Virus record (IMG/VR): IMGVR_UViG_3300016484_000532
Location: 1 to 54,515 of that record
Strand: one strand, 5' to 3'
DNA from: a virus
Taxonomy: Duplodnaviria; Caudoviricetes
Length of the DNA: 54,515 nucleotides
Under the pieces are notes generated by a model, which was not told the origin of the DNA, made no database searches, and worked only from the letters and a program-made list of their open reading frames with translations. Positions 4,291-33,560 of this stretch are shown piece after piece. Within the stretch, counting starts at the first letter, position 1, and each line of letters begins with the position of its first letter. The position numbers and the translations under genes are program-made.

Positions 4291-4626
4291 ATGGCAGATC
4301 GGATCAAGCTCGTCCAAGGCGACACCGGACCTCAGCTTCAGCTCACCCTGACGGATGAGTTGTCGGGGCTGCCTATCGACTTGACCGGGGCGACGGTGAC
4401 GATGAAGTTTCGGGCGGCAGGGAGCGATACGACCCTTTTCACTCGAACCGCTTTCATCAACCCGGAGACGGCGATTAATGGCTTGTGCGTAGTTCACTGG
4501 CTGACGGGTGATCTCGACGTTGAACCCGGATCCTACGAAGGCGAAATCGAAGTCGTGTTCCAGGATGCCATGCGGCAGACAGTCTATGACCTTCTCAAGT
4601 TCACGTTGCGGCAGGACTTCAACTGA
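4291..4626 (+). CDS. BppU N-terminal-like Ig-fold virion protein
   Basis: QGDTGP...PIDLTGATV...GSYEGEIEV pattern. Confidence 0.6.
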   Translation: MADRIKLVQGDTGPQLQLTLTDELSGLPIDLTGATVTMKFRAAGSDTTLFTRTAFINPETAINGLCVVHWLTGDLDVEPGSYEGEIEVVFQDAMRQTVYDLLKFTLRQDFN

Positions 4627-5678
4627 TGAAGACAAGCTGGTCAGCCAGGATCCTCAAACTTGCATCGACTGTCCGGACGATTTCGGCGGATGCGAGCGCG
4701 AGACAATTGGCTGTATCGGTACGCGCAAGCACCATAGCGTTTAGGGCGTTGGTTGGTCGATTCGTTGTTTTCCTGGACAAGGAAGATGCCGCTGCGTTTA
4801 CGGATCATAAGGCCATTGAGCTGCGTAAATCATGCGCTGATTCAATCGCCGCGCTTGACAGGTTAAGTAACGAACTTCGCGCCAAAAAGGAAGACGGGGC
4901 TTTTATCAGCGACGCAGCCAAAGCCGCAGCCGTAAAAAACCTACAAGATTTAGCCTCTATTCTTGAGCGCAAAAACATAGCGTTTGGTAAGACCGCTTCA
5001 GACGCGGCCCTATTTATTGATGCGGCCGTCCGGTTTTCTGGCAAGAGTCTGTCTGACTCTGCTGTTTTCTCTGAAACCAAAACAAAAACATTCTCCAAGA
5101 CGGCAGCCGATAACTTTGCCGCTTTGGATGCCGCAGCAAAAGGGTTGAGTCGAGGGCTTGTAGAAAGCTGCGCTGTTATTGACGCGGCATCAAGGACGGT
5201 CACCAAAGGATTGTTTGATATTGCCACGGTTACGGACGACGTGGATGGGCAGGCATCGATCCTCGACGACGAGACGATGAGCTTCTTAAAAGGGGTGAGT
5301 CACCAGGTTCGAGCGCTGGACGCCATTGAATTGGTTTCCGGATTTAACCGCACCTTTGCTGATGCGCTGAATGCTTTCGATTTATTGAGCAACGGCGTAC
5401 TCAAATCCCCAAATGAAAGCCTAGCGGCGAGTGACCAATACACGCACCTGTTTGATAAGAGGCCGATCGATACAGCGGTTTTTGCAGACCTCGTTGCACG
5501 GACAGGACTGAAAGCTATCCCGGACTCAGGGTTCTTTTCTGACTTTGCAAGTAAATCAAACGGCAAAGCATTTATCGAACAGACCTCGATCACCGACACG
5601 GGGTTTTTGCGAAGTCAGGGGTACTCGGACTTCACTTATTTCGCGGAAGACTTTGTCGGTGCTTCCAGAACTTTTTAA
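4626..5678 (+). CDS. Repetitive virion protein with about 18-19 aa KxxxDxxxxxD repeats
   Basis: Recurrent K..D.A...D periodicity; start overlaps the upstream stop. Confidence 0.55.
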   Translation: MKTSWSARILKLASTVRTISADASARQLAVSVRASTIAFRALVGRFVVFLDKEDAAAFTDHKAIELRKSCADSIAALDRLSNELRAKKEDGAFISDAAKAAAVKNLQDLASILERKNIAFGKTASDAALFIDAAVRFSGKSLSDSAVFSETKTKTFSKTAADNFAALDAAAKGLSRGLVESCAVIDAASRTVTKGLFDIATVTDDVDGQASILDDETMSFLKGVSHQVRALDAIELVSGFNRTFADALNAFDLLSNGVLKSPNESLAASDQYTHLFDKRPIDTAVFADLVARTGLKAIPDSGFFSDFASKSNGKAFIEQTSITDTGFLRSQGYSDFTYFAEDFVGASRTF

Positions 5679-17440: not shown

Positions 17441-18922
17441 ATGTCAATGAATGGTTTTGCAGCTGAAGGATTTGCCAATGGGCTGGTCACTGGTCTTGAA
17501 GCAGTCAACAAGTTGGTTGATTCCGCAGACAAGCGAAGAAATGACGCTAATGAACTGGCTTACAGAAAGCGGTATTGGGACGCATCAGCGGCTCAGAACG
17601 AGGCTGACGCCAGATTCAAAGAGCAGCAAGCTGCTTCACAGGATCTTGAGCTTGCACAAAAACGTGAAGAGCTTGATCGATCCAAGCGCATGCAGCAATG
17701 GCCTGAGGTAGAAAGGATCCTCACCGAAACTGATCCATCTCGCCCAGGGTTCAGGCCGTTTAACGAGCGTGATTTTGAATCCCTCAAATCGATCGGAATC
17801 GATCCTTCTTCCTTTGCACAGCCGGGTCTCGCGCAGCAAATCCAGTCAATGGGTAACGACATCATGTCGGGGCGTCGCGATATCAATGACCCGGAAGCCT
17901 TAAAGACGTTTGCCCCATTCGTGAACAATTTTGTTCAGCGGGATATCGGAGGGGTTAGCCGTGATGACAGCGGTAAACCTTTTCGCGTCGCAACCAAAGA
18001 GGTCGTCGGGTTCGATACCTATGTTGACCCCAAGGACCAACAACGCAAATACAACCCGAAGATTGTGCTGAAAGGGGCTGACGACGAAGGCAGATACGTT
18101 GAGACATCGCCTCGCCCGTACACCCTTTACGGCAGCAGCGATCCGCGTGATCCCGTTGCCTTTCTCACTGACGAACAGATGATTAACACGTCTTTGGCGG
18201 CCATGAACTTGAATCGTCAGATCCATGAAAACCCGGGCAGCTATGACGCATTTGTGCGGTATGCCAAGGGTAAATCGGGGATGTACGACACCAAGCCGAT
18301 TTCCGCACTGGATGAAGCGCGTGTCGCAAAAACCCAGGAAGAGATCAGGACCGAACAACTGCAACAGAGGAAAACTCTGGCTCAGACGGAGACCGAAGGG
18401 TATCAGCAGGCAAGGCAAAAGTACGAAGCGCTCATCAAGCTCAAAGAGTATGGCGGCTGGGACAACAAGGCAGAACTTGATCGGAAGATTAAGGAGGCCG
18501 AGCTTGAGCTTAAGAACGCCCAGATCGATTCGCAGGATGCGCTGACGCAGGAGCGCATGGCAAACCGCAACTCTAAGAAAGCTAAGAACGGATCAGCGGG
18601 GCCGCATTATTTTGATCCCGCGAAAGCCGAGCAATGGATGGAAAGTCAAGGTTACGGGAACAAATCGCAAGGCGGACTTCCTCCCAAGATTGATACCGAT
18701 CCGGCGGCCGGAAAGCAGCGCTCACAGATGCTGGGTGACGTGCAAGACATGATGTCAATGACGCCAGAGCTGCCACAGGCGGCGGCACAAACCGTCGTGT
18801 CCAGGGGAACCCGTACAGTTAAACCGATCAATGGGGTTCCGACGACGGTCTACGTCTACCAGAACCGCATGTATCCCGTAGGCGCTGCGCCGCAAGAACC
18901 CCAAAACCAAGCACCTAAATAG
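17441..18922 (+). CDS. Putative ejection/DNA transfer protein
   Basis: GGAG RBS; N-terminal GFAAEGFANGL pattern and coiled coils; precedes the giant gene. Confidence 0.55.
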   Translation: MSMNGFAAEGFANGLVTGLEAVNKLVDSADKRRNDANELAYRKRYWDASAAQNEADARFKEQQAASQDLELAQKREELDRSKRMQQWPEVERILTETDPSRPGFRPFNERDFESLKSIGIDPSSFAQPGLAQQIQSMGNDIMSGRRDINDPEALKTFAPFVNNFVQRDIGGVSRDDSGKPFRVATKEVVGFDTYVDPKDQQRKYNPKIVLKGADDEGRYVETSPRPYTLYGSSDPRDPVAFLTDEQMINTSLAAMNLNRQIHENPGSYDAFVRYAKGKSGMYDTKPISALDEARVAKTQEEIRTEQLQQRKTLAQTETEGYQQARQKYEALIKLKEYGGWDNKAELDRKIKEAELELKNAQIDSQDALTQERMANRNSKKAKNGSAGPHYFDPAKAEQWMESQGYGNKSQGGLPPKIDTDPAAGKQRSQMLGDVQDMMSMTPELPQAAAQTVVSRGTRTVKPINGVPTTVYVYQNRMYPVGAAPQEPQNQAPK

Positions 18923-18932
18923 CGAGAACTCG

Positions 18933-21900
18933 ATGGCTGTTTACGACCTTGATGGTAATGAAGTCGACCTTACTCTGAATGACGAAGAAAAAGCGATTGC
19001 GGGCGGATCGCGCTCAACGCCTACGCCGCAACGCGCTCGCGCTTCGCGTCTGAGCAGTGGTTTGCTTGGTGACCCAGAGTTCAGGTCCAAGGTTTCTCAG
19101 ATCGAGAACAATGAAGGCATTCCGCAGGGGCTTATTCATGCGGTTATAGCCAAGGAGTCTTCAGGAAATCCGGACAGCGTCAGCCCCGCCGATGAAAGCG
19201 GGAAAAGAGCCTGGGGTCTTGGGCAGTTTCGCGAATCAACGGCTAAAAGTATCGCAGAGTCCACAGGTATCCCGATCTGGCAAAACGGACGAGTCAATCT
19301 CGACCCAAACGTGCAGCTCTCTGCAATGGCCGCTCTGCTTCGACAAAACAAGGAAAGCCTCGGGGGTGATTGGTATGACGCCGCATGGGCCTACCATGCC
19401 GGACCTGACAATGTGCGCTCATACAAAAGCACAGGACGTTACTCCGCCTACGAAGACAAGATAGACCCGAACTACAAAAGCGACATCATTCGCTTGCGGT
19501 CTCGGCTTGAAAATCAAGGCGCAGACGCTAATGAGCCTGCGGCAAAAAAGAGCATTCTCGATTACGGCATTCCGATGACACCGGAAATTGCTGCATGGGA
19601 ACCAGAGAAGCCCGCTGCTCCCGCCCCAGTTCCTGCCGCACCCACAAGTCCATCGGCTATGGATCGGGTCAAGCAAGGGTTATCTGCAGTTCGAAATATC
19701 GATCTCAGTGGTCCCGGCGTCAAGCAGCTGCATCCCCCGGTCCCGCAAAACGTCCCGACATTCGATCCTGATTATCAGGAGATGGAAAAGTCGCTGAATA
19801 TGACGCTGGCTCCCGGATACGTTGAGCGCGTCAAAAATATCTATGAGGCAGCCACGCCCGATGATCGGCAGCGGCTCATGTCAGCCCCCGGGCAAGCTGG
19901 GGCTGTTGCTCGATTCATTGATAAGAAGTACCAGGCTTCAAATAACCTGTATGGATCGGTGCCGGAACTTCAGTCCCTCAGTGGCAGAAGGGAAGACGTT
20001 GAGGCCAGAAACCGACTTAATGGCATGGAGCCTTTGGCTGCTAAAACCATGGCAGATCGGGAAGTTCGGTTTGGGTCACGCCCCATATTCGGCCAAGCCA
20101 AGTCGACCGACTTCAATTTTGAGCGAGCTGCCGAACTAAACGGACGCGATATTCCGGAACAAGCACAACCGCAAGATCAGTCGTTTGGGGATCGCCTGGT
20201 CAACGCTGCTGAAAAGAACTGGAACGCAAGTCCGATCAGACGCGGAGCCATTCAGGGGGTAGACCTGCTGCAAGGGCAAGCGGCCGGCATGCACAAAATG
20301 ATTGCCGATGCAGGCGAGATGATGGGCGTACCGGGCGCAGCGGCCTATGGACGAGCACAAACCGCCGCTCGGCAGAAATTGGGCATGCGCCAAAACGAAA
20401 TGGGGCAGAGTCCTGACAAGTTCACCAGAGCCTTCGAGGGAGCGATTGCGTCGACCATATCGAATGCACCCGGATTGGCTGTAGGTCTTTTGAAGGGCGG
20501 CGAAGTTGTCCCCCTGATGATGATGAGTACGCAGGTCGCTGGCGATGAATACAGCAACGGCGTAGAGCGTGGACTGACAAAGTCACAAGCCCTGTCGAGG
20601 GCGGTTGCGTTTGGCGCAATGGAGTACATCGGGGAAAAGCTCGGGTTCAGAGATCAGATCGACATGATCAAGAACTCGGCCGGCGGCAATGTCCAGAACG
20701 TAGAAAAGCTGTTCCTCAAGACCCTCAGCGAGCAAATTGCCGGCGAAGAGCTGACCACCATTGGTGAATGGCGGATCGATAAATCAAAGGCGATCGGTCT
20801 CAATCCAGACTCCACAGCAAAAGAGCTGCTGGATCAGATGAAGGACACGCTCTACCAGACGGTCATGCAGACCGCGATGCTGGGTGCGCCTGGAGCCGCG
20901 TCAGCGGTCAACCGCAAACTGCGTGAAAGCGATGCCAGATACGACCAGCCGTTTGCGGACGCATTCAAGCCCGTGCGTGAAACGCATGCGGCCCGGGATG
21001 TTTACGACACCACAATCCGTACCCCGCTTGGTGAATTGCGGAATGATCCCGAATACCGGGAAATCGTCAGCAACCAGACCAATATCGATGACAGCGGCCT
21101 TGCCCGGGGTAAGGCAGCCCGTCAGATCTTGGCAGAACGAAGAGCATCCAAATATCTTGGACATATCGAAACCAATGGAGTCCCTTATGCCGAAAGTACC
21201 GATGTCAGCAATACGGGGAATGTTGTCCCCGCAGCAGGACAAGATCTCGAAACGAAGCAAGTCACCGGTTCTTCCGGCGGCCAACAAAATGCCGAAGCCA
21301 AAAATGGGCAAGAGCAAGAAGGGCAGCTGCTAGGTGGAACATCAGCGCTCAATCTAGCGGCTTACAGCATCACCAACCCGGATCCTCTGAATGAAAATGA
21401 TGAGCCGCTATCCGCGTCGGACGCCCTGTTTGAGCTTGAAGTTCTCCGCGACAGGGCAAACAAAGGAAAGCTGAACACAGAAATCTTTGCCTGGTCGCCA
21501 ATCGGCAAAAGGCTCGGTACAAACGTCTTGCAATCTTTCCTGGGCGAAATAAAAGCCGGCCGTTTCGGTTTCATCGACCAGCTTGCAAATCGAATCAAGG
21601 AGACATCAGGTGCCCAGCAAAACACCGAAACAGGCTCGACTGATGGCGGCTTGCAGCCACGGAGCCAAGTACAAAGCCTGCCCACCGGCGAAGGTGGCGC
21701 GGGAGTTCAACCAAGCGGACAAGAAAACCGGGATCTTACGCAAAAAGCCCCGGTAGGTCCGTTTTCGATGCAGCGTGGGCCGGGCGGTATCGCGATCCTT
21801 GATGGAAGCGGTACGCCGGTCAGCACTCATCAAACCATGGCCGACGCCATCGAGGCATTCGACCAGTTATCCGCGCAATCCAGCCAACAGGAGTATCAAG

Positions 21901-24900
21901 ATGAATTGCAAACTTCCGCCGCGTCCGGCAATGAAACAGGCACCGGTCAAGTCATCCCGGGTAGTGGACAACAAGTTGCCCAAGGAACTGAACAAGGGTC
22001 CGGGCAAGAAGCCCAGCAAAAAGGACATCATGGACTAAAACCAGAAGCTGAGTCTCTTCTCAAACAGGCTGAAGCGCAAGACGCGCTTGGCAATGCGGTC
22101 GAGGCTCAACGACTGAGGAGCTTGGTTGATCAAGTCAACAAAGGCGAATTCGTACCGGAGGCTTACCTAGATGCCAATAATCCCGATGGAAATGCTGGAA
22201 GCGGCGTATCGAAGTCTTCTGGAGGAGAGGCTGGCGCTGGAACTTCTGGAGTTTCTGGACAGGTATCCTCTGAAACCGGGAACGCTGGGACTGGTGGAGA
22301 CAGTGGATCTTCACTGAAAGAGCGGCGCGAAGCGAGGAAGCAGCGCAAATCAGCTGAGGCGCCAATCATTCAAAATCGGGATCGCTCAAACCCGGCATCG
22401 ATTCAGCAAATGCAGTCGATTGCGGCAAATCCGCATTACCTGAAGCTGGCCCCTGGAAATGATTTTGCCAGCGGCGCTCCCGTTGTTGTCGGGGGAAATA
22501 TCCCCGCAGAACAGCTGGGCAGAGAAGATATTGCCGTCACCGCGAAAAACCGCGAAATTCCTTTTCGTTATGCGGTGGTTGAAGCTTCAAAACTGGTGGC
22601 ATCGCACAATGCGGACGGAACACCAAACCCCGAATACGACAGCCCTCCCGCAGAAAAATCAAAAGCTGTTGCGGGAAATGGCCGTATTGCAGGTTTGCAG
22701 AAAGCCCACAAGCAGGGATCTGCGTTTAATTATGTTCAAGGGATGTTTGACGACGAGTATAGGCACGGGATCAGTCCTGCCGTGATTGGCAAATTGGCAA
22801 AGCCAATTCTGGTTCGCGTCATGCCGGAAGCCGAAATCACCAGAGACATTGGAGATGAATCCAATATCGGCAGCGGTCTTGAACAGTCCCCCCTTGAAAA
22901 AGCCAGGAACGATTCACACCGAATTGACCTGGGCGGCCTTGATTTTACGGATGACGGGGAAATCAACGAGCAGACCGTAAAGCAGTTTGTTCGCACGATG
23001 CCGGAAAACGAACAGGGCGGATTGCTGGATACGGATGGATCCCCAAACCGCAACGCTTACGATCGACTCAAGTCGGCAATCTTCTATAAGGCCTATCGAA
23101 ACGACGAGCTGGTTCGTCTTTTCTCGCAGACAGCAGACCCTGAAGCCAAGTTGGTTATTTCTGCGCTGGCGCGGGTGTCCCCAAAAATGGCGCGACTTGA
23201 AGGTGCGGGCAAGCTAGATATAAGCGATATTGTGGCGCAAGCCGCCATTGCGATCGTGAATGGACGCCGCAAGGAAATGAGCATGTCGATGATTGCAGGG
23301 CAAATCGACATGCTTGAAGATCCTGGTACGGCTGAGATTATTGCGCTATTTGCTGAAAACCCGCGAAGCAATAAGATGGCGATTGAGGCGCTGTCAGAAG
23401 CCGCCGATTTTGCATACGAAGAAGCAAATAATCCCGCTGAGGATCTTTTTGGCGAGCGCCAGCAGGCGACACGCGAAGATGTCCTCGCAAGAATAAGGAG
23501 CCGTCGTGGACAAAAGCAAGACGAAACACTGGAACACCCCAGAGGGGGCAAGCCTTCTGAAGGCAATGCTGGGCAGGAAGAAAATGGACGAGAAGGACAA
23601 GGAGACGCTGGCGAAATTCAAGGAGGAGAACAGGAAGGCCAAGGAGGAACAAAAGCCCTAGCGCCGCTCAAGCAGCGCCGCGCAGCCCGGAAAGAACGCA
23701 AAGCCTCATTTGCTACGCCGGAACAAGAACAGCGTCGAGCGGATTTGGTCCATCAGCTTGCTTTCCTGCGCGGGCGTCTGACGAAAACAAAGACGGCGTT
23801 TAATCGTCGCGAAATCGAAAAAGAGATCAAGCAGGCCGAGAAGGAATTAAGCAAACTGCCGGAAGGCATACTGACTCCGCGTGGAGCTGCGGATCTTCGA
23901 GGAAAGAATGTAGCCGAGAGCGAGCTTGTCAAAACTTGGCTACAAGGCGCTAATGATGTCCTTGATTATGAGGCCAAAAATCCAAGCGGCAAAACCGCCG
24001 ACCAGCTGTGGGAAGAGTACGCCTCATCCTGGGAAATATCAGGCCAGTCAGCTCCCATCTCAAAAGCATATTTCCAGAAGGTGCTGGCCTATAGGGCTGG
24101 CTTATCGCCGGAAGAGATTGCGGACGATCTTGATACTGCAGAGGTCGAAAACCTGGTTGATCAGGTTCGGAAACGGTTTGGCGAAAAAAGAGCGACAGAC
24201 ATCCTTGAAAATGCTGCAAGGGCAGCATCACGAAAAGAAGGCGCGTATTTCCCGCTGGTTCGTAAGGCGGCTGAAGATCTCCTTAAAAACCGCGAAATTG
24301 TCACGCCAAGCGAAGACGATAATGTTGGAGTAAACGCGGCCGGCGAACCTTTGTTTGAAAGAAAGGATGGTTCTCGATACAGGATCCACAACGGAGAGCC
24401 GGATTTTGGTGGCGATCTCGCGCCAGTTGAAGGTGACCTTTTTGGCGCACCTACCAAAGAAGACCAGCAGCGCTCCGAAAAAGAGGCGGTAGATGCCTAC
24501 GCGAAGGAAAAGGCCCGCCAGCGCAATGCGACCGGACAGGAAGTATCTGGCGGTCTTTTTGATCAGGATAACCGTCAGGCGGATGTGTTTTCAGAGCCTG
24601 CGACCCGTATTGGCCGATTGACGACACCAGGAGCAACCTACGGAACCTCCAACAAGGTGTTTACTTCCGATGCTGCTGATAAAGCCCGTGAACTGCTCAA
24701 AAAGAAACTGGGACAACTAAACACCGGACTCGATCCGGAAATGATGCAGGCCGGCATCACCCTTGCGGGCTATCATATCGAGGCAGGCGCTCGATCGTTC
24801 GCGGCCTACTCAAAGGCCATGATCAATGATTTGGGTGATGCAGTAAGGCCATATCTCAGGTCTTGGTACGAAGGTGTCCGCTATTACCCTGGTATTGATG

Positions 24901-27900
24901 CGTCAAAAATGACGTCGTCGGCCGATATCGATAGCGGAAGCGTAGAATCTCTTGCAGAAATCACTCAGGGTAAAACAAATGTCACTGACCTCAATAGCAA
25001 CTCCAATCTGGAACGAGATAGCGGCGACGCAGAATCTACAAACAGATTGGGCGAAGAAGATATTCGCCATGGGTCCGGACGAGATGTTGGCGCAACTAGA
25101 TCAGGAATACAGAGCACTGAAGGAAATACACGGGGAGACCGTGGCATCAGCATATCTGGACATGAAGCCGCTGCTTCTGGAGAACCTAGCGATCTCAAAA
25201 TATATCGAGGAGCACCAGTGGCTGAGGGCGGCGCTTCCGGAGGTGCTGTCAGTGACGGAGGCGGTATTCTTGGCGTCTCTGGATCACCCATTGAGCCAGA
25301 TACAGCAAACCAAACTGCAAAGGTTGCTCAAAGCCGATCTGAAGTAAGGCGGGATCAGGCCAAGCAGACAGAGGCCGACAAGCAGAATCACTCTGGATCC
25401 AGCCTTCAGGAGATTCGTGCTGCATTACCCACCCTGCTTTCAGGGCAGCAGGAAGACGTTTTCAAGGCGGAAACTCGCTTCAGCGCACCTGATGGTTACG
25501 GAATGCTGTTTACCAACGGCACCGGCACCGGGAAAACCTTTACAGGTCTTGGCATCATCAAGCGATTTAGTGGTCGCGGAAAAAATAACATCCTCATACT
25601 TGCGCCTAACAACGAAATCATACGCGCATGGGTAAAGTCAGGCCGCATCCTGAACCTTGAAATCAACCCGCTCGACAACACCAAGGATGCTGGCAAAGGC
25701 ATCACGATCACCACCTACGCCAACTTTGGCGCAAACGATGCTCTAGCCAGCCGCAACTGGGATCTGACCGTAGCGGACGAGGCGCATTACCTCATGCAGG
25801 ATGCCTCAGGCACTCCAACGCACGTTATTCAAAACCTTCGCGCCATTACCAAGCATCCGGACGGTGTTTATCGCCGCGCTGAAATGCTGCATCAAGATCT
25901 GCGGGACGAAATGGCGGATCTGAGTAGCCGAATCGATAGCGTTAGCAAGCAACTGTCGAACTCGGACACGATGGATTCGATGATCCCCGATCTTCAAAAG
26001 ATCCTGGCCGATCTTGAACCCAAGCTGGAATCCGCAAGATCAAAGTGGGAAACAGCCAAAGACAGAGTCAAGGCGGATGTCGCTGGTTCGCAAAATGCAA
26101 ATCGTCCGCGCTCCCTGTTCCTGTCGGCAACCCCGTTTGCGTATGAGCCGACCGTCGATTGGGCGAACGGTTACCTCTTCGACTACAACGAAGGGCAGCC
26201 TGACGAATCCAAGGAGTTCAGAGGCTACAACTCAGGGCAGAACAAAGACCGCTTCTTTATGACGCATTTCGGCTATCGGATGCGTTACAACAAACTCACC
26301 AAGCCGGATGCCAAAGTCGATAGCGGATTGATGCAGCGCCAGTTTAATACCTGGCTCAAAAAGCGCGGATCCCTTTCAGGAAGAATGCTCGATGTTGCGG
26401 CCGACTATGACCGTCGCTTCATTTTGGTGGAATCTGCGATTGGTACGCGCATCGATCAAGCGCTGGAATGGTTCCATGACGAAGCAGAGCGCGTCAGGGA
26501 TGCGGGCGGCAACTCGAATGGGGTAAGCGAGCTTGAGGACGCAATCGCGGACAAGTTCGATTACCTCTCCCGTCGATACCTTCTGGAAGCCATCAAGGCG
26601 ACCGAGGTCATCAAGCACGTCAAGGAACACATGGCGCTGGGTCGCAAGGTGGTGGTGTTCCATGACTACAAGAAAGGGGGCGGTTTCCATCCCTTCAAGA
26701 TGGAGCGACGATCTGACCCGCTTTTCAATGAGGCGCTAGACCGATTCAATGCCGAGTTTCAGGATTTGCTGAAGATCGACTTTGCCTCAATGCCAAGCCC
26801 CATCGAGGTGTTCAAGCGCGAATTCCCAGATGTTCTTCTTTTCAATGGCGATGTCTCCAAGAAGCAGAGACGCGCCAATGTCGAAAAGTTTCAGTCTGAT
26901 GATTCAGGTCCGCAGGTTTTTCTTGCCCAGACTGCCGCAGCCAGGGAAGGAATCAGTCTCCACGACACGACCGGCAAACATCAGCGCGTCCTTTTGAACC
27001 TGGGCCAGCCCACGCAGCCGACCACCTCGATCCAGCAGGAAGGCCGAATTTACCGCACCGGACAGGTTACGGATGCCATTTTCCGCTACCTCAATACCGG
27101 CACCAACTGGGAAAAGTGGGCGTTTGCGACCACGATCGCACAGCGCGCCAGTGCCGCAGAAAATCTAGGTATGGGCGAACAGGCTAGAGCGCTCAAGGAT
27201 GCCTTTATTGCGGCATTTGAGGAGTCCGACAATTACCGCGCCGGCATGGAAGGCGAGGGCAAGGGCGGCAAAGAACGCGATCGCCTGGCTAATGAGGCGC
27301 TCACTGAATGGGATCGCGCCAAGGCTTTTTATTACGGCACCCAGAAAAAAACCAGCAAGACCAAGGCGCAGGAAGGGGCGGATTACTTCGCAACGCCAGA
27401 GCCTTTAGGCCTCAAGATGGTGGAATGGCTGCAACTGCAACCGGGAGACAAAGTTCTTGAGCCAAGCGCCGGCCATGGTGCGATTGCCCGCTGGATGCCT
27501 GAGAATACGGAGCGCACCGCGATTGAACCTTCGCGTCAGCTCCTTCCAAAGCTCGCCATGGTATTCGATGGAAAGATCGTCGATACCAACTTTGAGCAGC
27601 ACAACATCGTCAACAAGTACGACGGGATCGTGATGAATCCCCCGTTCGGGAGCGGCGGAAAGACTGCGGTCGAGCACCTTGCAAAGGCGGCGCAGCATCT
27701 TCGGGATGGCGGCCGAATTGTGGCCTTGATTCCTTCCGGCCCGGCATCAGACAAGCAGTTCTCAAAGTTCTTCCATGAGGAGACGCGAATCCCTGTTGCT
27801 CCGGTTCTGAATACCAAAGCGCTGGGTCCGGTTTATGTTGGTGACACGATCAAAACCAACTACAGCTGGATGCAGGAAGGCAAGGTAACGGGAACGCATG

Positions 27901-30900
27901 GGGATCAACTCCTTGTCAGGAGGGCCGGCGTTAATGGTGTAACCCATGTTGATCCATCCTGGGTTACAGAGCTTGTTGCAACGGGGCGCCGCGAAAAGGT
28001 AGCAAGGCAGGCCGAAAATCTGTTCATGGTGGCCGACATCCAGCTGCCATCCTCCGTTTTCGAGCGCGCAGGGACCAGCGTCAACACCCACATTGTCGTC
28101 CTTGAAAAGCAGGAAGATCCCGAAAAGGCAAAGCTGATCCAGCAATCCAATCGGGATTACAGCAATGCCAAGGATATCAATGACTTTTTCGATCGCATCG
28201 AGGAGGCGAGCCTGCCGGCAAGAGTCGGCAAAGATCAGTCCTCAGTAGCGGATCAGGTAGCGTCTGAAACTAAGCCGGCTGCAGCAAAGGGTCAAGCAGA
28301 AGGCAATCGGTACGTCACCGATGCGCCAGCTATCACTTACACGACCAAAAGCGGCAAAACGCTGGAAGGCGTAATTGCGCGTGATCTTTCGCAAGATGAA
28401 GCAAAGGCCATCGATCCTTACACATGGAAGAAGGATGGCGGCTATTTCATTCGCATGAAGCACGTCGATCGTCCTCAGCCGATGTTCAGCCGCAGCCAGG
28501 TTTTCTTCTCCGCTCTGGAGCGCGGTATTTATTCATCCAAGATCGAGACGCAGCCCGCTACTCAGTGGCGCGCATGGTTGCAGGGCAACAAGGCCAAGCT
28601 CGGGATCAAGGACGAAGAGATTGCATGGACCGGACTTGATGATTACCTAACCCTCAAAGGAAAAGAGCGCCTATCAAAAGCAGATATCACCGCATTCCTG
28701 AAGGATAACGGGATACAGGTTGGTGAAGTAACAAGGATGCCGATCGAAGAAATGTCTGACGATCGCGTTCGCGAGGAATATGAAAAAGATTTAGGTGGAG
28801 CGGATCTGGGGCTTAGTTTTGTGCCTACCGTAAAAGAGATGCGCGAGTGGCTTGCTGATATTGCTGAAGAGGGAACGCATGGAACGCCCAAATACGAGCA
28901 ATGGTCGTTTTATGGCGCAGGCAAGAACTACCGCGAGCTTTTGCTGACGCTTCCAACCAAATCGGAGCGTGAAATCGCCGACAACAAAATGAAAGCGTTC
29001 ACGGATCGCGTGACCAAAAGGCTTGGTAGAGAAGGTTGGGGTCTTGAATCAATGACCCCTGGTGAGCTGGCTGAATACGACCAGCTAAATGATGCCGCAA
29101 TGAAAGCGTCCAGCGTCAAGCCAACCACTTACAAGTCGGCGCATTGGAAAGAGTCAAATGTTCTTGCTCACATCCGCTTCAACGACCGCACTGATGCTGA
29201 CGGCAACAAGGTTCTCTTTGTCGAGGAGATCCAGTCAGACTGGGCGCAGGAAGGCAGGAAGAAAGGTTTTAAGGGTGAGAAAGTAAAAGGCTACGAGGTT
29301 TCTTGGGAAGGCCGCCCAATCATGGTCTACGAAACAAAAGAGGAAGCAGAAGCGCACGTTAGTCGCGCACTTAAAAATGATCCCAACGCGCCAATCGCCA
29401 TAAAAGAGGTAATGGCGAAAAAAAATGCACAGCAAGAGTCAGGAAAGGTTGAGGAAGCTCCTTTTGTCAAAGATACCAAGGCCTGGGTATCTCTCGCCCT
29501 GAAGCGCATCATCCGGTACGCGGCAGAAGGCGGATACGACAAGGTTGCGTTTGTGACCGGCGAACAAGCGGCTGATCGTTTTGACCTGAGCAATCAGGTC
29601 GATTCCATTCTCTACAAAAAGAACAATGACGGCACTTATAAGCTGTCAGCTCAGGTGCATGGGCGCGGCCAGTTGCTTGGTGACGCAATTAGCGAAGACG
29701 CGCTCGAAGATCATGTTGGAAAGGAAGTTGCCCAGAAGATCGTCAATGGCGAAGGCCGGAAAACTGAGGTGCAAGGGAAATATGACCCCAGCATGCCGTT
29801 CGGCAAGAACTATATGAATGAGCTTTCGGGCATTGATCTCAAGGTCGGCGGTGAAGGAATGAAATCCTTCTACGACCAGATTGTTCCGCAAGTGGCGAAT
29901 GATGTCTTGAAAAAGCTCGGCGGAGGTCGACTGGAAAGCGTTGAGATCGATACGCGATCACCAGAAAATGATTCCTGGTATGAAGAGCTAACCGACAAAG
30001 ACATCCTAAAGCACCCCGGATTCGTCATTACTCCCGCCATGCGAGACAAAGCCATGGCTGGTCTGCCGCTCTTCATCCGCAACGTAGGGGGCGGAAATCC
30101 AACCGGACTGAGTCTTAATGTCGTAGACAAGATGGCGCGGGTCATCTGGGACAAGCTCGGGATAGCTCCCGGTGTGAATCTTCGGACGGTAGAAACGGAG
30201 TCGGATCTTCCAAAGGAGATACTTGATCGGGCCGCCAAAGAAGGCGCACTCGGCACGATTGAAGCCGTTCAGCATAAGGGCACCATTTATCTTGTAGCGG
30301 ATAAGCATACCAGCGCCCTTCATGTAGAGGAATCAATCCTGCATGAAAGCACACACCTTGGTGGCCGCATTTTCTATGGGCGAGACATTCTGAAAATGTA
30401 CACCCGGCTTTACTTTGCGCTGGGGAGAGAGGCAGGGATTCGGGATTGGGCTAAACGCCTTGGTTTCAGCATGGACTCTTACTTTAAGACCGCCAGCGAT
30501 ATGGTGAAAGCAGGGACCATGCAGCCAACGCAACGGTTCTCTTATCTGGCAGATGAGTTCCTAGCTCACGCCCAGGGATCAAAGGCCTATCAGTCGCTGC
30601 CCCGGAAAGCGCTGCAGTTGTTTAGAGAAATCCTTGGTGCAATCCGAAACTGGATGAAGTCGAAAGGATTGATTGAAAGCTCAAAGCTCAGTGATGCTGA
30701 CCTTGCATACCTTCTTCGCAATCTTCATCGCGCAGCGCAGGGCAAAAGCTCTGCAATGGCTGGGGATTCTATATTCAAAAGATCCGGCAACGGTTCGGAA
30801 GCCCGATTCTCTCGCAAAAACGTACTTGGAGATGAGCCTGCCGCAACGTGGACAGCTCCAGGCGCAACCCGGCTGGATAACTTCATTTATAAGATGCAGG

Positions 30901-33560
30901 ACAAACTGATCGACACCAAGCGCGTCGAGCAGGCGATCAAAGACATCGAGGACGAGTGGAGTCCGTACCAGAAGGAAATGCTCTATCACGGTCGCGCAGC
31001 CAAACAAACGGAAGATTTCATGACCAATGAAATCAAGCCGCTGGTCAAGGCTATGCAAGAAAAAGGCGTCTCGATGAACGAGCTTGAGACCTATCTTTGG
31101 AATCGGCATGCCCAAGAGCGCAACGAGCAGATCGCCAAGATCAACCCTCGCATGGAAGATGGCGGGTCCGGGATCCTGACGGAAGACGCGCAGGATTACC
31201 TTAAAAGCCTACCCAGCGATAAACGCAAGGATCTTGATGCGCTGGCCGGATTAGTGGACAAGATCAACAGCGGCACCAAGAAAATTCTGATCGATTCAGG
31301 TCTTGAGGTTCCAGAAACCATCGCAGCTTGGGATGAGACCTATAAGTTCTATGTCCCCCTGATGCGCGGAGAATCCGATATCTCGCACCGAGGCAACGGA
31401 ACCGGGTCAGGATTTGACATTAGAGGCCCAGCAAGCAAACGCGCCATGGGTTCAGATAAGCCGGTTGTTGATATTCTCGCCAACATGCTGATGCAGCGCG
31501 AACGGACCATCGTTCGAGCCGAAAAGAATCGGGTCGCCCTTGCGCTATATGGGCTTGCGATCCAAAACGAGAACCCCAGCTTCTGGCTACCGGTCAATCC
31601 CGAAGCGATTCGTGCGCCAAAACGCACACGAAATGAGCTTGCAAGCATGGGTCTGGATTCATCTGAGATAGATGGATTGATGCGGGAGCCTGCCTCTCGA
31701 TACATCGATCCACAATCAGGCCTTGTGGCGTCCAGAATCAACCCTGCGCTCCGCAACCGAGACAATGTCCTGGCTGTTCGAATCAATGGCAAAGATCGGT
31801 TCGTGTTTTTCAATACCGGAGATCCCCGGGCAGCTCGAATGGTGGAAGCGCTAAAGAATCTTGACGCCGATCAGCTAGGCTCATTCTTGTCAGCGATCCG
31901 AACGGTTACACATACATTCGCCGCGATGAATACCCAATACAATCCGGTATGGGGTCTGTTTAACATTTTCCGCGATACGGTTGGGGGATGGCTGAATCTG
32001 ACTAGCACCGCTATTGCAGGAAAGGAAAAGGACGTCCTGTCGCATGTTGGCCCCGCTATTGTTGGCATTTATGCGGATCTTCGCGCCGACCGCGCAGGCC
32101 GGCCTCGATCCTCCGGTGAATGGGCAAAGCTCTGGGAAGATTTCCAAGAGCATGGCGGCAAAACCGGGTATCGAGACAGCTTTAGAACATCCGAAGACAG
32201 GGCGAGAGCGCTGCAGAGAATGCTGGATCCTTCATCTTGGGCGGATGACGGGCTTGGACGGTTCTTCTCTATTGATGGACGGCTAAAGGCTCCAATGGAA
32301 ATGGTTCGAAAGGCGGCATCCCCAGTGGCAACCCCGGTCTTCGGATGGCTATCTGATTTCAACGAAACCACGGAAAACGCAATTCGGCTGTCAGCATACA
32401 AAGTCGCTATTGATTCAGGGCTTTCAGCGGACAAGGCAGCAATCATCGCCAAGAATCTGACGGTCAACTTTAATAAAAAGGGGCAACTGGCATCCCAGCT
32501 GGGTGCGCTGTACGCATTCTTCAATGCAAACGCCCAGGGCACCGCAAGAATTCTTGAGACGCTGAATGGGCCGAAAGGCAAGAAAATCATCGCTGGCGGG
32601 CTTCTGGTTGGCGTCATTCAGGCGTTCATGATGGCGGCAGCCGGATACGACGACGATGAACCGCCGCAATTCACCCGCGAACGCAATTTTGTGGTTCCAG
32701 TGGGTGATCGTTACTTCTCGTTCCCATACCCTCTGGGCTATCACGTCATTGTGAGTACCGGGCGCATTCTGACTGAGATTGCTTTGAGCGGTGGCAAAGA
32801 CGCAGGGAATAAGGTCTTTGACTTGATGGCGGCCTACATGGAGTCGTTCAACCCGATGGGGTCTGGCAAATCAATTTCCGAAGTCATGTCGCCGACGATC
32901 ACCGACCCGATTGTGGCGATAGAGCGGAATACCGACGCCTTTGGTCGGCCGATTGCACGGCTTGACCGCAGCGAACTCAGCCCAACCCCCGGATTTACCC
33001 GCGCAAAGGATACGGCCAGTGCGTTCGGAAAATGGTTTGCGGAGGTCATCAACACCCTTTCAGGCGGAAGCGACTACAGGCCTGGTCGCGCATCACCGAC
33101 ACCAGATCAAATCGATTACCTCATCGGTCAGGCAACCGGCGGCGTAGGCAGGGAAGCCATGAAAATTGAACAGACTGTCAGCAGTCTGGTAACTGGTGAA
33201 GAACTGCCTCCGCACAAGATCCCATTGTTGGGACGGCTTTATGGTGACATCCATTCCCAATCCGCTGAGGCAAATCGCTTCTATCAAAACGTGACCAAGC
33301 TGAATGAGCATGAAGCCGAGATCAAGGGTCTGGCAAAGAACGGCGGCGACTATCAGACCTACATGCAGAAGCATCCGGAAACGCAGCTCATTGCATCAGC
33401 CAACGCGCTGCAGAACGGCGTCTCTGAACTGAGGGCAAGGAAAAGGCTGGCCATGTCAAAAGGTAACAGCAAGGAACAAGTCAAACAGATCGAAAACCAG
33501 ATCGTCGTGTTCATGAAATCACTGAACGATCGCATGACGGCTTTGGAGGCCAAGCAATGA
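18933..33560 (+). CDS. Large polyvalent (DarB/DdrB-like) virion protein: SLT transglycosylase, DdrB-like ParB-fold, SF2 helicase, N6-adenine methyltransferase, HExxH metallopeptidase-like, LPD38-like
   Basis: 4875 aa; AKESSGN/GLGQF/AYHAG; QNRDRS/VAGNGR; GTGTGKT/DEAH/GISLHD/QQEGRIYR; LEPSAGHG/NPPF; HESTH; NTDAFGRPI/QIDYLI. Confidence 0.88.
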   Translation: MAVYDLDGNEVDLTLNDEEKAIAGGSRSTPTPQRARASRLSSGLLGDPEFRSKVSQIENNEGIPQGLIHAVIAKESSGNPDSVSPADESGKRAWGLGQFRESTAKSIAESTGIPIWQNGRVNLDPNVQLSAMAALLRQNKESLGGDWYDAAWAYHAGPDNVRSYKSTGRYSAYEDKIDPNYKSDIIRLRSRLENQGADANEPAAKKSILDYGIPMTPEIAAWEPEKPAAPAPVPAAPTSPSAMDRVKQGLSAVRNIDLSGPGVKQLHPPVPQNVPTFDPDYQEMEKSLNMTLAPGYVERVKNIYEAATPDDRQRLMSAPGQAGAVARFIDKKYQASNNLYGSVPELQSLSGRREDVEARNRLNGMEPLAAKTMADREVRFGSRPIFGQAKSTDFNFERAAELNGRDIPEQAQPQDQSFGDRLVNAAEKNWNASPIRRGAIQGVDLLQGQAAGMHKMIADAGEMMGVPGAAAYGRAQTAARQKLGMRQNEMGQSPDKFTRAFEGAIASTISNAPGLAVGLLKGGEVVPLMMMSTQVAGDEYSNGVERGLTKSQALSRAVAFGAMEYIGEKLGFRDQIDMIKNSAGGNVQNVEKLFLKTLSEQIAGEELTTIGEWRIDKSKAIGLNPDSTAKELLDQMKDTLYQTVMQTAMLGAPGAASAVNRKLRESDARYDQPFADAFKPVRETHAARDVYDTTIRTPLGELRNDPEYREIVSNQTNIDDSGLARGKAARQILAERRASKYLGHIETNGVPYAESTDVSNTGNVVPAAGQDLETKQVTGSSGGQQNAEAKNGQEQEGQLLGGTSALNLAAYSITNPDPLNENDEPLSASDALFELEVLRDRANKGKLNTEIFAWSPIGKRLGTNVLQSFLGEIKAGRFGFIDQLANRIKETSGAQQNTETGSTDGGLQPRSQVQSLPTGEGGAGVQPSGQENRDLTQKAPVGPFSMQRGPGGIAILDGSGTPVSTHQTMADAIEAFDQLSAQSSQQEYQDELQTSAASGNETGTGQVIPGSGQQVAQGTEQGSGQEAQQKGHHGLKPEAESLLKQAEAQDALGNAVEAQRLRSLVDQVNKGEFVPEAYLDANNPDGNAGSGVSKSSGGEAGAGTSGVSGQVSSETGNAGTGGDSGSSLKERREARKQRKSAEAPIIQNRDRSNPASIQQMQSIAANPHYLKLAPGNDFASGAPVVVGGNIPAEQLGREDIAVTAKNREIPFRYAVVEASKLVASHNADGTPNPEYDSPPAEKSKAVAGNGRIAGLQKAHKQGSAFNYVQGMFDDEYRHGISPAVIGKLAKPILVRVMPEAEITRDIGDESNIGSGLEQSPLEKARNDSHRIDLGGLDFTDDGEINEQTVKQFVRTMPENEQGGLLDTDGSPNRNAYDRLKSAIFYKAYRNDELVRLFSQTADPEAKLVISALARVSPKMARLEGAGKLDISDIVAQAAIAIVNGRRKEMSMSMIAGQIDMLEDPGTAEIIALFAENPRSNKMAIEALSEAADFAYEEANNPAEDLFGERQQATREDVLARIRSRRGQKQDETLEHPRGGKPSEGNAGQEENGREGQGDAGEIQGGEQEGQGGTKALAPLKQRRAARKERKASFATPEQEQRRADLVHQLAFLRGRLTKTKTAFNRREIEKEIKQAEKELSKLPEGILTPRGAADLRGKNVAESELVKTWLQGANDVLDYEAKNPSGKTADQLWEEYASSWEISGQSAPISKAYFQKVLAYRAGLSPEEIADDLDTAEVENLVDQVRKRFGEKRATDILENAARAASRKEGAYFPLVRKAAEDLLKNREIVTPSEDDNVGVNAAGEPLFERKDGSRYRIHNGEPDFGGDLAPVEGDLFGAPTKEDQQRSEKEAVDAYAKEKARQRNATGQEVSGGLFDQDNRQADVFSEPATRIGRLTTPGATYGTSNKVFTSDAADKARELLKKKLGQLNTGLDPEMMQAGITLAGYHIEAGARSFAAYSKAMINDLGDAVRPYLRSWYEGVRYYPGIDASKMTSSADIDSGSVESLAEITQGKTNVTDLNSNSNLERDSGDAESTNRLGEEDIRHGSGRDVGATRSGIQSTEGNTRGDRGISISGHEAAASGEPSDLKIYRGAPVAEGGASGGAVSDGGGILGVSGSPIEPDTANQTAKVAQSRSEVRRDQAKQTEADKQNHSGSSLQEIRAALPTLLSGQQEDVFKAETRFSAPDGYGMLFTNGTGTGKTFTGLGIIKRFSGRGKNNILILAPNNEIIRAWVKSGRILNLEINPLDNTKDAGKGITITTYANFGANDALASRNWDLTVADEAHYLMQDASGTPTHVIQNLRAITKHPDGVYRRAEMLHQDLRDEMADLSSRIDSVSKQLSNSDTMDSMIPDLQKILADLEPKLESARSKWETAKDRVKADVAGSQNANRPRSLFLSATPFAYEPTVDWANGYLFDYNEGQPDESKEFRGYNSGQNKDRFFMTHFGYRMRYNKLTKPDAKVDSGLMQRQFNTWLKKRGSLSGRMLDVAADYDRRFILVESAIGTRIDQALEWFHDEAERVRDAGGNSNGVSELEDAIADKFDYLSRRYLLEAIKATEVIKHVKEHMALGRKVVVFHDYKKGGGFHPFKMERRSDPLFNEALDRFNAEFQDLLKIDFASMPSPIEVFKREFPDVLLFNGDVSKKQRRANVEKFQSDDSGPQVFLAQTAAAREGISLHDTTGKHQRVLLNLGQPTQPTTSIQQEGRIYRTGQVTDAIFRYLNTGTNWEKWAFATTIAQRASAAENLGMGEQARALKDAFIAAFEESDNYRAGMEGEGKGGKERDRLANEALTEWDRAKAFYYGTQKKTSKTKAQEGADYFATPEPLGLKMVEWLQLQPGDKVLEPSAGHGAIARWMPENTERTAIEPSRQLLPKLAMVFDGKIVDTNFEQHNIVNKYDGIVMNPPFGSGGKTAVEHLAKAAQHLRDGGRIVALIPSGPASDKQFSKFFHEETRIPVAPVLNTKALGPVYVGDTIKTNYSWMQEGKVTGTHGDQLLVRRAGVNGVTHVDPSWVTELVATGRREKVARQAENLFMVADIQLPSSVFERAGTSVNTHIVVLEKQEDPEKAKLIQQSNRDYSNAKDINDFFDRIEEASLPARVGKDQSSVADQVASETKPAAAKGQAEGNRYVTDAPAITYTTKSGKTLEGVIARDLSQDEAKAIDPYTWKKDGGYFIRMKHVDRPQPMFSRSQVFFSALERGIYSSKIETQPATQWRAWLQGNKAKLGIKDEEIAWTGLDDYLTLKGKERLSKADITAFLKDNGIQVGEVTRMPIEEMSDDRVREEYEKDLGGADLGLSFVPTVKEMREWLADIAEEGTHGTPKYEQWSFYGAGKNYRELLLTLPTKSEREIADNKMKAFTDRVTKRLGREGWGLESMTPGELAEYDQLNDAAMKASSVKPTTYKSAHWKESNVLAHIRFNDRTDADGNKVLFVEEIQSDWAQEGRKKGFKGEKVKGYEVSWEGRPIMVYETKEEAEAHVSRALKNDPNAPIAIKEVMAKKNAQQESGKVEEAPFVKDTKAWVSLALKRIIRYAAEGGYDKVAFVTGEQAADRFDLSNQVDSILYKKNNDGTYKLSAQVHGRGQLLGDAISEDALEDHVGKEVAQKIVNGEGRKTEVQGKYDPSMPFGKNYMNELSGIDLKVGGEGMKSFYDQIVPQVANDVLKKLGGGRLESVEIDTRSPENDSWYEELTDKDILKHPGFVITPAMRDKAMAGLPLFIRNVGGGNPTGLSLNVVDKMARVIWDKLGIAPGVNLRTVETESDLPKEILDRAAKEGALGTIEAVQHKGTIYLVADKHTSALHVEESILHESTHLGGRIFYGRDILKMYTRLYFALGREAGIRDWAKRLGFSMDSYFKTASDMVKAGTMQPTQRFSYLADEFLAHAQGSKAYQSLPRKALQLFREILGAIRNWMKSKGLIESSKLSDADLAYLLRNLHRAAQGKSSAMAGDSIFKRSGNGSEARFSRKNVLGDEPAATWTAPGATRLDNFIYKMQDKLIDTKRVEQAIKDIEDEWSPYQKEMLYHGRAAKQTEDFMTNEIKPLVKAMQEKGVSMNELETYLWNRHAQERNEQIAKINPRMEDGGSGILTEDAQDYLKSLPSDKRKDLDALAGLVDKINSGTKKILIDSGLEVPETIAAWDETYKFYVPLMRGESDISHRGNGTGSGFDIRGPASKRAMGSDKPVVDILANMLMQRERTIVRAEKNRVALALYGLAIQNENPSFWLPVNPEAIRAPKRTRNELASMGLDSSEIDGLMREPASRYIDPQSGLVASRINPALRNRDNVLAVRINGKDRFVFFNTGDPRAARMVEALKNLDADQLGSFLSAIRTVTHTFAAMNTQYNPVWGLFNIFRDTVGGWLNLTSTAIAGKEKDVLSHVGPAIVGIYADLRADRAGRPRSSGEWAKLWEDFQEHGGKTGYRDSFRTSEDRARALQRMLDPSSWADDGLGRFFSIDGRLKAPMEMVRKAASPVATPVFGWLSDFNETTENAIRLSAYKVAIDSGLSADKAAIIAKNLTVNFNKKGQLASQLGALYAFFNANAQGTARILETLNGPKGKKIIAGGLLVGVIQAFMMAAAGYDDDEPPQFTRERNFVVPVGDRYFSFPYPLGYHVIVSTGRILTEIALSGGKDAGNKVFDLMAAYMESFNPMGSGKSISEVMSPTITDPIVAIERNTDAFGRPIARLDRSELSPTPGFTRAKDTASAFGKWFAEVINTLSGGSDYRPGRASPTPDQIDYLIGQATGGVGREAMKIEQTVSSLVTGEELPPHKIPLLGRLYGDIHSQSAEANRFYQNVTKLNEHEAEIKGLAKNGGDYQTYMQKHPETQLIASANALQNGVSELRARKRLAMSKGNSKEQVKQIENQIVVFMKSLNDRMTALEAKQ
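21187..21333 (+). CDS. Candidate nested gene (+1 frame), 48 aa basic peptide
   Basis: GGAG 6 nt before ATG; spans a low-complexity linker of the giant protein. Confidence 0.45.
   Translation: MPKVPMSAIRGMLSPQQDKISKRSKSPVLPAANKMPKPKMGKSKKGSC
21610..21756 (+). CDS. Candidate nested gene (+1 frame), 48 aa, MPSKTPKQARLMAA-type small phage protein
   Basis: AAGGAG 7 nt before GTG; resembles a small free-standing phage protein pattern recalled as MPSxSxKQxRxMAA.AH...VAKEFNxADK. Confidence 0.7.
   Translation: MPSKTPKQARLMAACSHGAKYKACPPAKVAREFNQADKKTGILRKKPR
21901..22038 (+). CDS. Candidate nested gene (+1 frame), 45 aa Lys/Pro-rich peptide
   Basis: AGGAG 7 nt before ATG; spans a linker. Confidence 0.45.
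   Translation: MNCKLPPRPAMKQAPVKSSRVVDNKLPKELNKGPGKKPSKKDIMD
22171..22317 (+). CDS. Candidate nested gene (+1 frame), 48 aa Leu/Glu-rich helical peptide
   Basis: GGAGG 9 nt before ATG; spans a Gly/Ser linker. Confidence 0.55.
   Translation: MPIIPMEMLEAAYRSLLEERLALELLEFLDRYPLKPGTLGLVETVDLH
23506..23661 (+). CDS. Candidate nested gene (+1 frame), 51 aa charged helical peptide
   Basis: TAAGGAG 5 nt before GTG; spans the linker after the ParB-like domain. Confidence 0.6.
   Translation: MDKSKTKHWNTPEGASLLKAMLGRKKMDEKDKETLAKFKEENRKAKEEQKP
24979..25347 (+). CDS. Candidate nested gene (+1 frame), 122 aa globular helical protein
   Basis: AGGGT 7 nt before ATG; natural protein-like composition while the main frame is a G/S-rich linker. 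Confidence 0.65.
   Translation: MSLTSIATPIWNEIAATQNLQTDWAKKIFAMGPDEMLAQLDQEYRALKEIHGETVASAYLDMKPLLLENLAISKYIEEHQWLRAALPEVLSVTEAVFLASLDHPLSQIQQTKLQRLLKADLK

Follow-up and report, generated by a model that had tools for sequence, protein, structure and literature searches.

A member of a widespread family of small phage proteins lies nested out of frame within a giant polyvalent-protein gene

The DNA analysed here is the 54,515-bp IMG/VR record IMGVR_UViG_3300016484_000532 (hereafter the window), from a virus of the Caudoviricetes, with an estimated completeness of 92%. It contains a giant gene for a polyvalent, DarB-like protein, and within this gene lies a complete small open reading frame (ORF), whose translation is VPSKTPKQARLMAACSHGAKYKACPPAKVAREFNQADKKTGILRKKPR with the GTG start read as methionine (Table 1). 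Relative to the giant, the frame of the small ORF is +1, because (21610-18933) mod 3 = 1, and the giant ORF (18933..33560, 4875 aa) is the sole long ORF that spans it. The layout is that of an embedded gene pair, in which a small ORF sits wholly within a longer ORF on the same strand and in another frame. An initial annotation, made from the letters alone, had reported an AAGGAG-7nt-GTG start followed by a +1-frame peptide, and had suggested a likeness between this peptide and small stand-alone phage proteins. The start motif and the peptide are borne out by the sequence and its translation.

The suggested likeness proved to be real. In a PHROG hmmscan, residues 1-41 of the nested peptide match positions 1-43 of 58 of phrog_16759 (E 1.7e-9), a family whose function is unannotated. 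Two families labelled virion structural protein, phrog_22033 (E 1.7e-8) and phrog_25121 (E 1.4e-4), are matched as well, each over its N-terminal 48 positions. As a control, none of the 10 longest other alternative-frame ORFs on the + strand of the giant gene (76-149 aa) matches any PHROG at E<=0.01. A search of a large collection of 5.8 billion protein clusters gave 120 candidates; with E<=0.01 as the limit, 118 of them remain, which have 41-68 aa and reach 87-89% identity to the peptide. The family profile (A1) was built from 106 sequences and detects the window with E 5.8e-31, a value that has to be read knowing that the window peptide is itself one of its rows. In the 106-sequence alignment, the peptide carries the consensus residue at 3/3 invariant and 12/12 near-invariant columns; its conserved residues are the M-P-S start (M1 being the GTG), Q8, A9, M12, A13, H17, V29, A30, F33, N34, A36, D37 and L43. 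Helices are predicted at residues 6-16 and 27-38, with a loop between them and a lysine/arginine tail (...GILRKKPR), and AlphaFold2 (mean pLDDT 90.9) models the peptide confidently as a two-helix hairpin with a basic tail. The nested peptide is thus a family member by profile match, conserved residues, length (~45-65 aa), two helices and basic tail, and it represents the two-cysteine loop subtype of the phrog_16759 small basic protein family. The usual state of the family, a separate gene, does not apply to this nested copy, which concerns the arrangement of the gene and not the protein.

Homologues of the nested gene do exist as independent genes, as the initial annotation had proposed to check. 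The family profile finds 3086 representative proteins at E<=1e-3, of which 1050 reach E<=1e-10, and most of them are stand-alone genes of 45-135 aa near terminase/portal genes, or N-termini of virion proteins. Among the best 150 representatives, ~33 exceed 150 aa; most of these carry the domain at the N-terminus, and a few have it at an internal, in-frame position. With tblastn, matches were obtained in 22 phage records, four of which were examined. The homologue of Stenotrophomonas phage BUCT555 is a separate coding sequence of 52 aa (QQM14872.1) directly 3' of the portal gene and that of Pseudomonas phage PhiPA3 a separate coding sequence of 56 aa (gp316). In Erwinia phage Hallingskeid and Escherichia phage Turkey5 the homologous domain forms the N-terminus of a 328-aa and a 262-aa protein, respectively. 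Fold matches in BFVD include the phage EL protein Q2Z0Y7 (TM 0.81 by query length), and BFVD returned solely family members plus two proteins named DUF6321-containing; DUF6321 probably covers another part of these two, as it is absent from the Pfam scans.

Databases of annotated families add little to this picture. The peptide has no Pfam match at E<=10, and nine relatives and the 106 members show chance-level Pfam matches at most. No NCBIfam match was found for five family proteins, the family profile, searched against PDB sequences, had no match at E<=1, and Foldseek against PDB gave nothing below E 4. In the ESM Atlas, DUF3008 occurs in 37% of the members of a cluster neighbouring the homologue P0038 (feature score 0.93), which we take as a lead only. 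The family does not match Pfam DUF3008 (PF11450) itself, with a hit at E<=1 in 0/106 members, window peptide included; our literature search returned no paper on DUF3008. Two further forms of the domain were observed. In P0193, P0223, P0232, P0253, P0256, P0261 and P0270, lysine/glutamate-rich proteins of 274-713 aa, it is internal, in frame and devoid of the M-P start; scans of all of these except P0270 gave no Pfam family, and they are possibly internal head or scaffold-like proteins. In L035, L046, L049, L050, L054 and other loci, proteins of 400-745 aa with an MPSK domain at the N-terminus lie directly 3' of a homologue of the terminase small subunit of the window; the L035, L046 and L049 proteins were scanned, and no further Pfam or PHROG match appeared.

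How often is a family member nested? For each locus we asked whether another same-strand frame is open across the whole small gene, in 80 IMG/VR loci, 80 metagenome loci and 21 evaluable loci on contigs of metagenome-assembled genomes (MAGs). All but four of the copies checked lie outside any long ORF of another frame. L056, the sole case in the IMG/VR set, is nested in a 2339-aa ORF with ddrB-ParB and LPD38, and L132, the sole case in the metagenome set, in an ORF of at least 441 aa with InPase and DarB-like matches. The MAG contigs contribute L223, in an ORF of at least 2158 aa, and L228, in an open frame of at least 1550 aa. The sole match of the large ORF of L228 is one of 6%, with genes that are annotated as portal in four Burkholderia phages, and we assign it to no class. 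The flanks of the L056, L132 and L228 copies are unrelated to one another and to those of the window. Including the window there are five host ORFs in all, and each contains a full-length nested copy with start and stop. A family-profile search found no second family copy in the window record, in the record of L056 (G002, 100% complete with terminal repeats) or in G001 and G003, the MAG assemblies that hold L223 and L228. The number of nested cases should be taken as a minimum, because some of the alternative frames of 50-300 aa that span many stand-alone copies could be real overlaps.

In the remaining loci the family shows its usual arrangements. Stand-alone copies typically adjoin genes for a terminase large subunit and portal-sized genes, or homologues of the terminase small subunit of the window, and in 6/80 IMG/VR loci the domain forms the N-terminus of proteins that are 400-745 aa long or run off the contig. 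A scan of 56 loci for relatives of the L056 nested gene revealed no new nested case in L168 (the contig of L056 itself), L171, L211, L216 and L217. Alternative frames of ~200-300 aa are open across the small gene in L008, L089, L100/L104, L105, L112, L126, L129, L226 and L242. Additionally, the homologue in L155 (728-865) begins with ATT, which is not a standard start, and L244 (774-836) holds a 20-aa remnant; both are possible decaying copies.

Of the other nested copies, that of L223 lies at the orthologous site of a related giant. The window giant is laid out as linker, module X, nested gene and module Y, and the L223 giant as linker, nested family member and module Y. The L223 copy ends just before module Y and has the same relative frame as that of the window, and L249, a 97.7% relative of L223, has an identical nested layout. 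The L223 contig (57,898 bp, in a MAG titled Spartobacteria) carries orthologues of the giant and of the ORF preceding it (17441-18922). Being about as long as the window record, the contig is probably the genome of a related phage that was placed in a bacterial MAG; the Spartobacteria label is at best a weak hint to the host. A third giant, L006, is 56% identical to that of the window over 879 aa from the nested site onward and 43% identical upstream. Module X is 53% identical to L006 residues 1752-1851, ~950 residues further on. The presence of module X at different places in the two proteins implies that these giants are mosaics rearranged at linkers, with the small gene at one junction, and the sequences would thus point to module shuffling at linkers. 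Module X ends in RIKETS/RIRETS, and at the position that it takes in L006 the window has an unrelated segment of ~50 aa between the conserved YFPLVRK and DLFGAPTKEDQQRS.

At this orthologous site, it is the nested frame that has been kept. Between the window and L223, the stretch of the nested ORF (hereafter the zone) is identical at 30/48 residues in the nested frame (BLOSUM score 133) as opposed to 13/50 in the giant frame (score 35), while in the giant frame the upstream flank (538 aa) is 51.7% identical and the downstream flank (209 aa) 42.6%. Nucleotide differences between the two are distributed as 19/14/28 over the nested codon positions, with an excess at the third. Comparison of the window with the stand-alone copy L088 gives 34/48 third positions that differ, which is close to saturation, and 40/48 residues that are the same. 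These data support the earlier claim that the nested frame is the selected one. That it is also the older one is supported by its 3086 family representatives and by the giant-frame reading being without counterpart in L006. The accompanying claim, that the giant overprints the small gene, needs a qualification: a long ORF does read through what appears to be a captured older gene, but this is not the birth of a new functional protein.

Variation among close relatives tells a similar story. The stretch 20900-22500 is also present on contigs of four sequencing runs, each from a different other study, at about 97% identity (~95-99%) and with zero indels, and X3 record 9, X9 record 20 and X12 record 6 span the entire nested ORF. 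Among the listed variants of these four related runs there are 40, of which 39 are outside the zone. In the giant frame, 26 of these 39 fall at third positions, and 25 are synonymous and 14 non-synonymous; the giant is therefore under purifying selection in the flanks. Only one listed variant falls in the zone, 21744 A>G, which leaves K45 of the nested peptide unchanged and turns K into E in the giant frame. Low variation in the zone is what dual coding predicts, because giant-synonymous sites are second positions of the nested frame. X3 and the window have 37 differences in 1329 nt, of which 1 is listed in the 147-nt zone and 2 are unplaced, and L249 and L223 have 84 differences in 3678 nt with 0 in the 153-nt zone. 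For both zones together 7.6 changes are expected, which gives a Poisson P of 0.004 if 1 is observed and of 0.056 if 3 are. The embedded frame thus appears to be under purifying selection while embedded, with the numbers being small and import from stand-alone copies being possible. As a separate observation, 15 variants cluster within the 133 nt of 21440-21572; of these, 13 are giant-synonymous and most are common to all four related runs. The cluster stops just before the nested gene, and the next listed variant is that at 21744.

The host gene has the composition of a polyvalent protein, with several unrelated effector domains that include the phage-type LPD38 and ddrB-ParB. Its domains are SLT (residues 56-167), ddrB-ParB (1146-1296), ResIII/helicase C-terminal (2188-2762), methyltransferase (2840-2941) and LPD38 (4574-4766), and it matches the DarB-like phrog_10089, phrog_10691 and other giant PHROG families. 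No best stretch of any listed Pfam or PHROG match falls in residues 175-1145. Over the nested ORF, the giant frame is a segment rich in G/Q/S/T/E, and with no domain match in residues 175-1145 this agrees with the early description of the main frame as featureless. Polyvalent proteins are likely packaged in the capsid, according to Iyer et al. (2017, PMC5512222). Further downstream, the window has a terminase-portal block (50000-54136), the usual position of the family in other phages, and no family copy is present there. The ORF 3' of the portal gene (54136-54513) begins with a proline-/lysine-rich sequence and runs off the end of the record. A blastn search with 20800-22600 against the phage collection gave no match.

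Table 1. Coordinates of the nested ORF, its surroundings in the giant gene and the terminase-portal block, as positions in the window.
Feature	Position	Strand	Remarks
Giant host gene	18933..33560	+	4875-aa polyvalent (DarB-like) protein
Module X, giant residues 796-892	21318..21608	+	ends ...RIKETS; directly 5' of nested gene
Shine-Dalgarno-like AAGGAG	21597..21602	+	7 nt (ACATCAG) 5' of GTG; K-E of ...RIKETS in giant frame
Giant residues 893-942	21609..21758	+	giant-frame reading of nested gene; low-complexity inter-module linker
Nested ORF	21610..21756	+	GTG start, 48 codons and TAG (21754-21756); +1 frame of giant ORF
Module Y, giant residues 943-1121	21759..22295	+	starts PFSMQRGPGG; kept in L006, L223 and L249; marks orthologous site
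Terminase small subunit	50000-50554	+	
Terminase large subunit	50532-52058	+	
P22-like portal	52058-54136	+	

Signals around the nested start are compatible with internal initiation. The putative Shine-Dalgarno (SD) sequence is near-optimal. AAGGAG-N5-9-ATG/GTG occurs 10 times in the window on both strands together, and comparison with the ORF list places 3/10 at the starts of long ORFs; the motif therefore supports a start without proving one. The further occurrences away from long-ORF starts are at 23495 and 49208 on the + strand and at 38198, 37953, 27914 and 894 on the - strand, and that at 23495 falls within the giant gene. From -30 to +30 of the GTG, the predicted RNA structure has -7.6 kcal/mol, weaker than 95% of the positions sampled in the giant (mean -13.9, sd 3.9); the mean at 29 gene starts is -10.7. 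Scans of 20600-22600 gave one weak promoter-like site (21129-21158) and no terminator, no more than in shuffles. GC by codon position was uninformative in this genome of 53.5% GC. Upstream of the start, ATCAAGGAGACA is common to the window and L132, and the remaining loci show ordinary SD motifs; we draw no meaning from this.

We consider it likely that the nested ORF is a functional embedded gene, translated by internal initiation, and that the giant reads the same stretch as a disordered linker. In this scenario the late mRNA of the giant gene would be decoded in two frames over 21610-21756. Ribosomes that initiated at the ATG at 18933 would make a disordered linker between two modules of the giant, and other ribosomes would start at the internal AAGGAG-7nt-GTG and produce a free 48-aa helix-loop-helix protein with a basic tail. 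Because a linker tolerates almost any sequence, the nested frame would dictate the evolution of the stretch. Regarding the origin of the arrangement, a stand-alone gene may have been captured at a module junction of a mosaic gene, via read-through fusion or cassette insertion. Capture would be easy, because about a fifth to a quarter of the stand-alone copies already have a stop-free alternative frame. The small protein is probably associated with the head or virion, a role that we infer only from context, since its relatives adjoin terminase/portal genes or form the N-termini of proteins labelled virion structural.

Several observations weigh against a functional embedded gene. For every nested copy, the nearest relatives are stand-alone genes or separately called proteins and not other nested copies; the window peptide is 83-85% identical to such relatives as opposed to 60% to L223. 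Exchange between the two states is therefore likely, and not simple vertical descent, and recent import or recombination, as opposed to selection in place, could account for some of the conservation. L056 and L132, both nested, differ nearly evenly over the codon positions (8/11/14), a spread that fits dual constraint and also relaxed constraint. The nested start is GTG, where nearly all relatives have ATG, and the orthologous copy in L223 has no obvious SD. L006 has a low-complexity linker directly before module Y (PYSVQKTPDG...), with no trace of the small gene. Codon usage is ambiguous: relative to real-gene windows, the log-odds of the nested frame lie at the 1.5th percentile and those of the giant frame at the 6.5th. 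Moreover, the variation test deals with small numbers and becomes non-significant if both unplaced X3 differences fall in the zone, and a further 63 variants of the four runs lie beyond those listed. Finally, translation of the nested ORF is itself a prediction from sequence.

Several of these points fit an alternative explanation: the small gene might be a silent relic, swallowed by ORF fusion or cassette insertion, with the giant alone being translated and the small ORF intact only because either that event or a subsequent recombination with a stand-alone copy is recent. The closeness of each nested copy to stand-alone or separately called relatives, the GTG start, the missing clear SD in L223, the lack of the gene in L006 and the ambiguous codon usage would all fit, and copies do decay, as illustrated by the 20-aa remnant in L244 and by L155 with its lack of a standard start codon. 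Nonetheless, we regard this as unlikely. A relic would hardly be expected as a full-length copy with start and stop in five different host ORFs. Nor should its frame then be conserved far better than the giant frame where giants that are only ~50% identical share the orthologous site. Two independent comparisons of close relatives show a depletion of variation in the zone, no second copy turned up in the four records or genomes searched, and the start region is unstructured. Alternatively, translation could start at the nested GTG and slip by -1 in the lysine codons of the tail, yielding a large protein with a small N-terminal domain. Indeed, the giant frame equals the nested frame minus 1 (= plus 2) in 5/5 host ORFs, N-terminal fusions of the domain to proteins of 400-1245 aa exist, and the tail in the window contains ...C AAA AAG.... 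However, a canonical X_XXY_YYZ heptamer is found in 0/5 nested ORFs, with AAG AAG or mixed codons in L056, L132 and L223, and the AAA>AAG change at 21744 in 3/4 related runs removes the A-run. With no slippery heptamer in the five nested ORFs and the A-run lost in relatives, a programmed -1 frameshift was rejected, and we deem a fusion of this kind very improbable.

The frame shared by the five hosts has a simpler cause. Of 120 distinct stand-alone genes, 33 have no stop in the +1 frame and 23 have none in the +2 frame. When only genes with Leu-Met at residues 11-12 are counted, a trait of 4/5 nested copies, the proportions become 4/24 (+1) and 9/24 (+2). The chance of all five sharing one frame is ~0.08, and sequence constraint is enough to explain it. 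Least credible of all is an assembly or sequencing artefact, in which compensating indels would have made a false giant ORF or shifted an in-frame domain out of frame. Some proteins of 337-713 aa do have in-frame internal copies of the domain. Yet the contigs from four other studies have no indels over 20900-22500, which contradicts an artefact, and the out-of-frame layout recurs in L223, L249, L056, L132 and L228. Moreover, profile position 1 coincides with a separate start codon, and a stop closes the match.

One may also speculate on why the nested gene should reside in such hosts. Three of the five host ORFs are polyvalent by their domains and a fourth by homology to the window giant, and the nested copies represent three peptide subtypes. 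One could imagine that the small protein works as a functional partner of the polyvalent giants, its gene having been captured time and again, each time independently, in the linkers of unrelated virion-delivered giants, an idea that we find doubtful at present. If it were true, co-expression from the mRNA of the giant would be selected, for instance because a small head protein aids the capsid loading of the giant or accompanies it into the host, and the small gene would act as a helper housed in linkers and able to pass, by recombination, from the stand-alone to the embedded state and back. In any case, the arrangement pairs a very common head-module protein (3086 representative clusters) with capsid-delivered polyvalent proteins as a testable link. 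There is also a practical side. Small ORFs within longer ones go unreported by gene callers, and close relatives of this phage are present in at least 18 sequencing runs, yet the 5.8-billion-cluster collection has no protein >89% identical to the peptide; the conserved gene is therefore invisible exactly where it is embedded. This suggests that the linkers of giant phage genes are worth screening for hidden genes.

Compared with known systems, the nested peptide resembles the phrog_16759 proteins and the N-termini of phrog_22033 and phrog_25121 in its hidden Markov model match from position 1, its M-P-S start, its ~50 aa, its basic tail and its two-helix model. Unlike these relatives, which are separate genes or N-terminal domains, it lies out of frame in a gene for 4875 aa and has a GTG start. 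The layout recalls phage lambda, in which Rz1 is an embedded out-of-frame gene in Rz. The Rz and Rz1 proteins are two subunits of one complex. Both pairs have a small gene wholly in a larger one, on the same strand, in the +1 frame and with its own start signals, which are predicted in our case. The difference is that the nested gene of the window belongs to a widespread and normally stand-alone family, that its host reads the stretch as a linker only, and that no functional link between the products is implied. Our literature search returned no paper on a nested alternative-frame gene or gene fusion in phage virion-protein genes. With its ddrB-ParB, LPD38, SLT, helicase and methyltransferase domains the host gene is comparable to the phage polyvalent proteins described in PMC5512222, and in the main text of that paper the words 'overlapping' and 'frameshift' are absent. 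As in viral overprinting (a review is PMC8227390), one sequence has two open frames, of which the older is the more conserved. In classical overprinting, however, a new protein is born in an old gene, whereas here the small gene is the old one and the new reading is a spacer of the giant ORF. This would be a less discussed route to overlapping genes, in which a mosaic giant ORF grows over an old and widespread gene, uses it as spacer and leaves the old frame as the constrained one. The arrangement belongs to a known class, the embedded phage genes. What sets it apart is its direction, with a giant ORF that has grown over an old gene, together with the occurrence of such nesting in at least five giant ORFs and the fact that gene callers do not see it.

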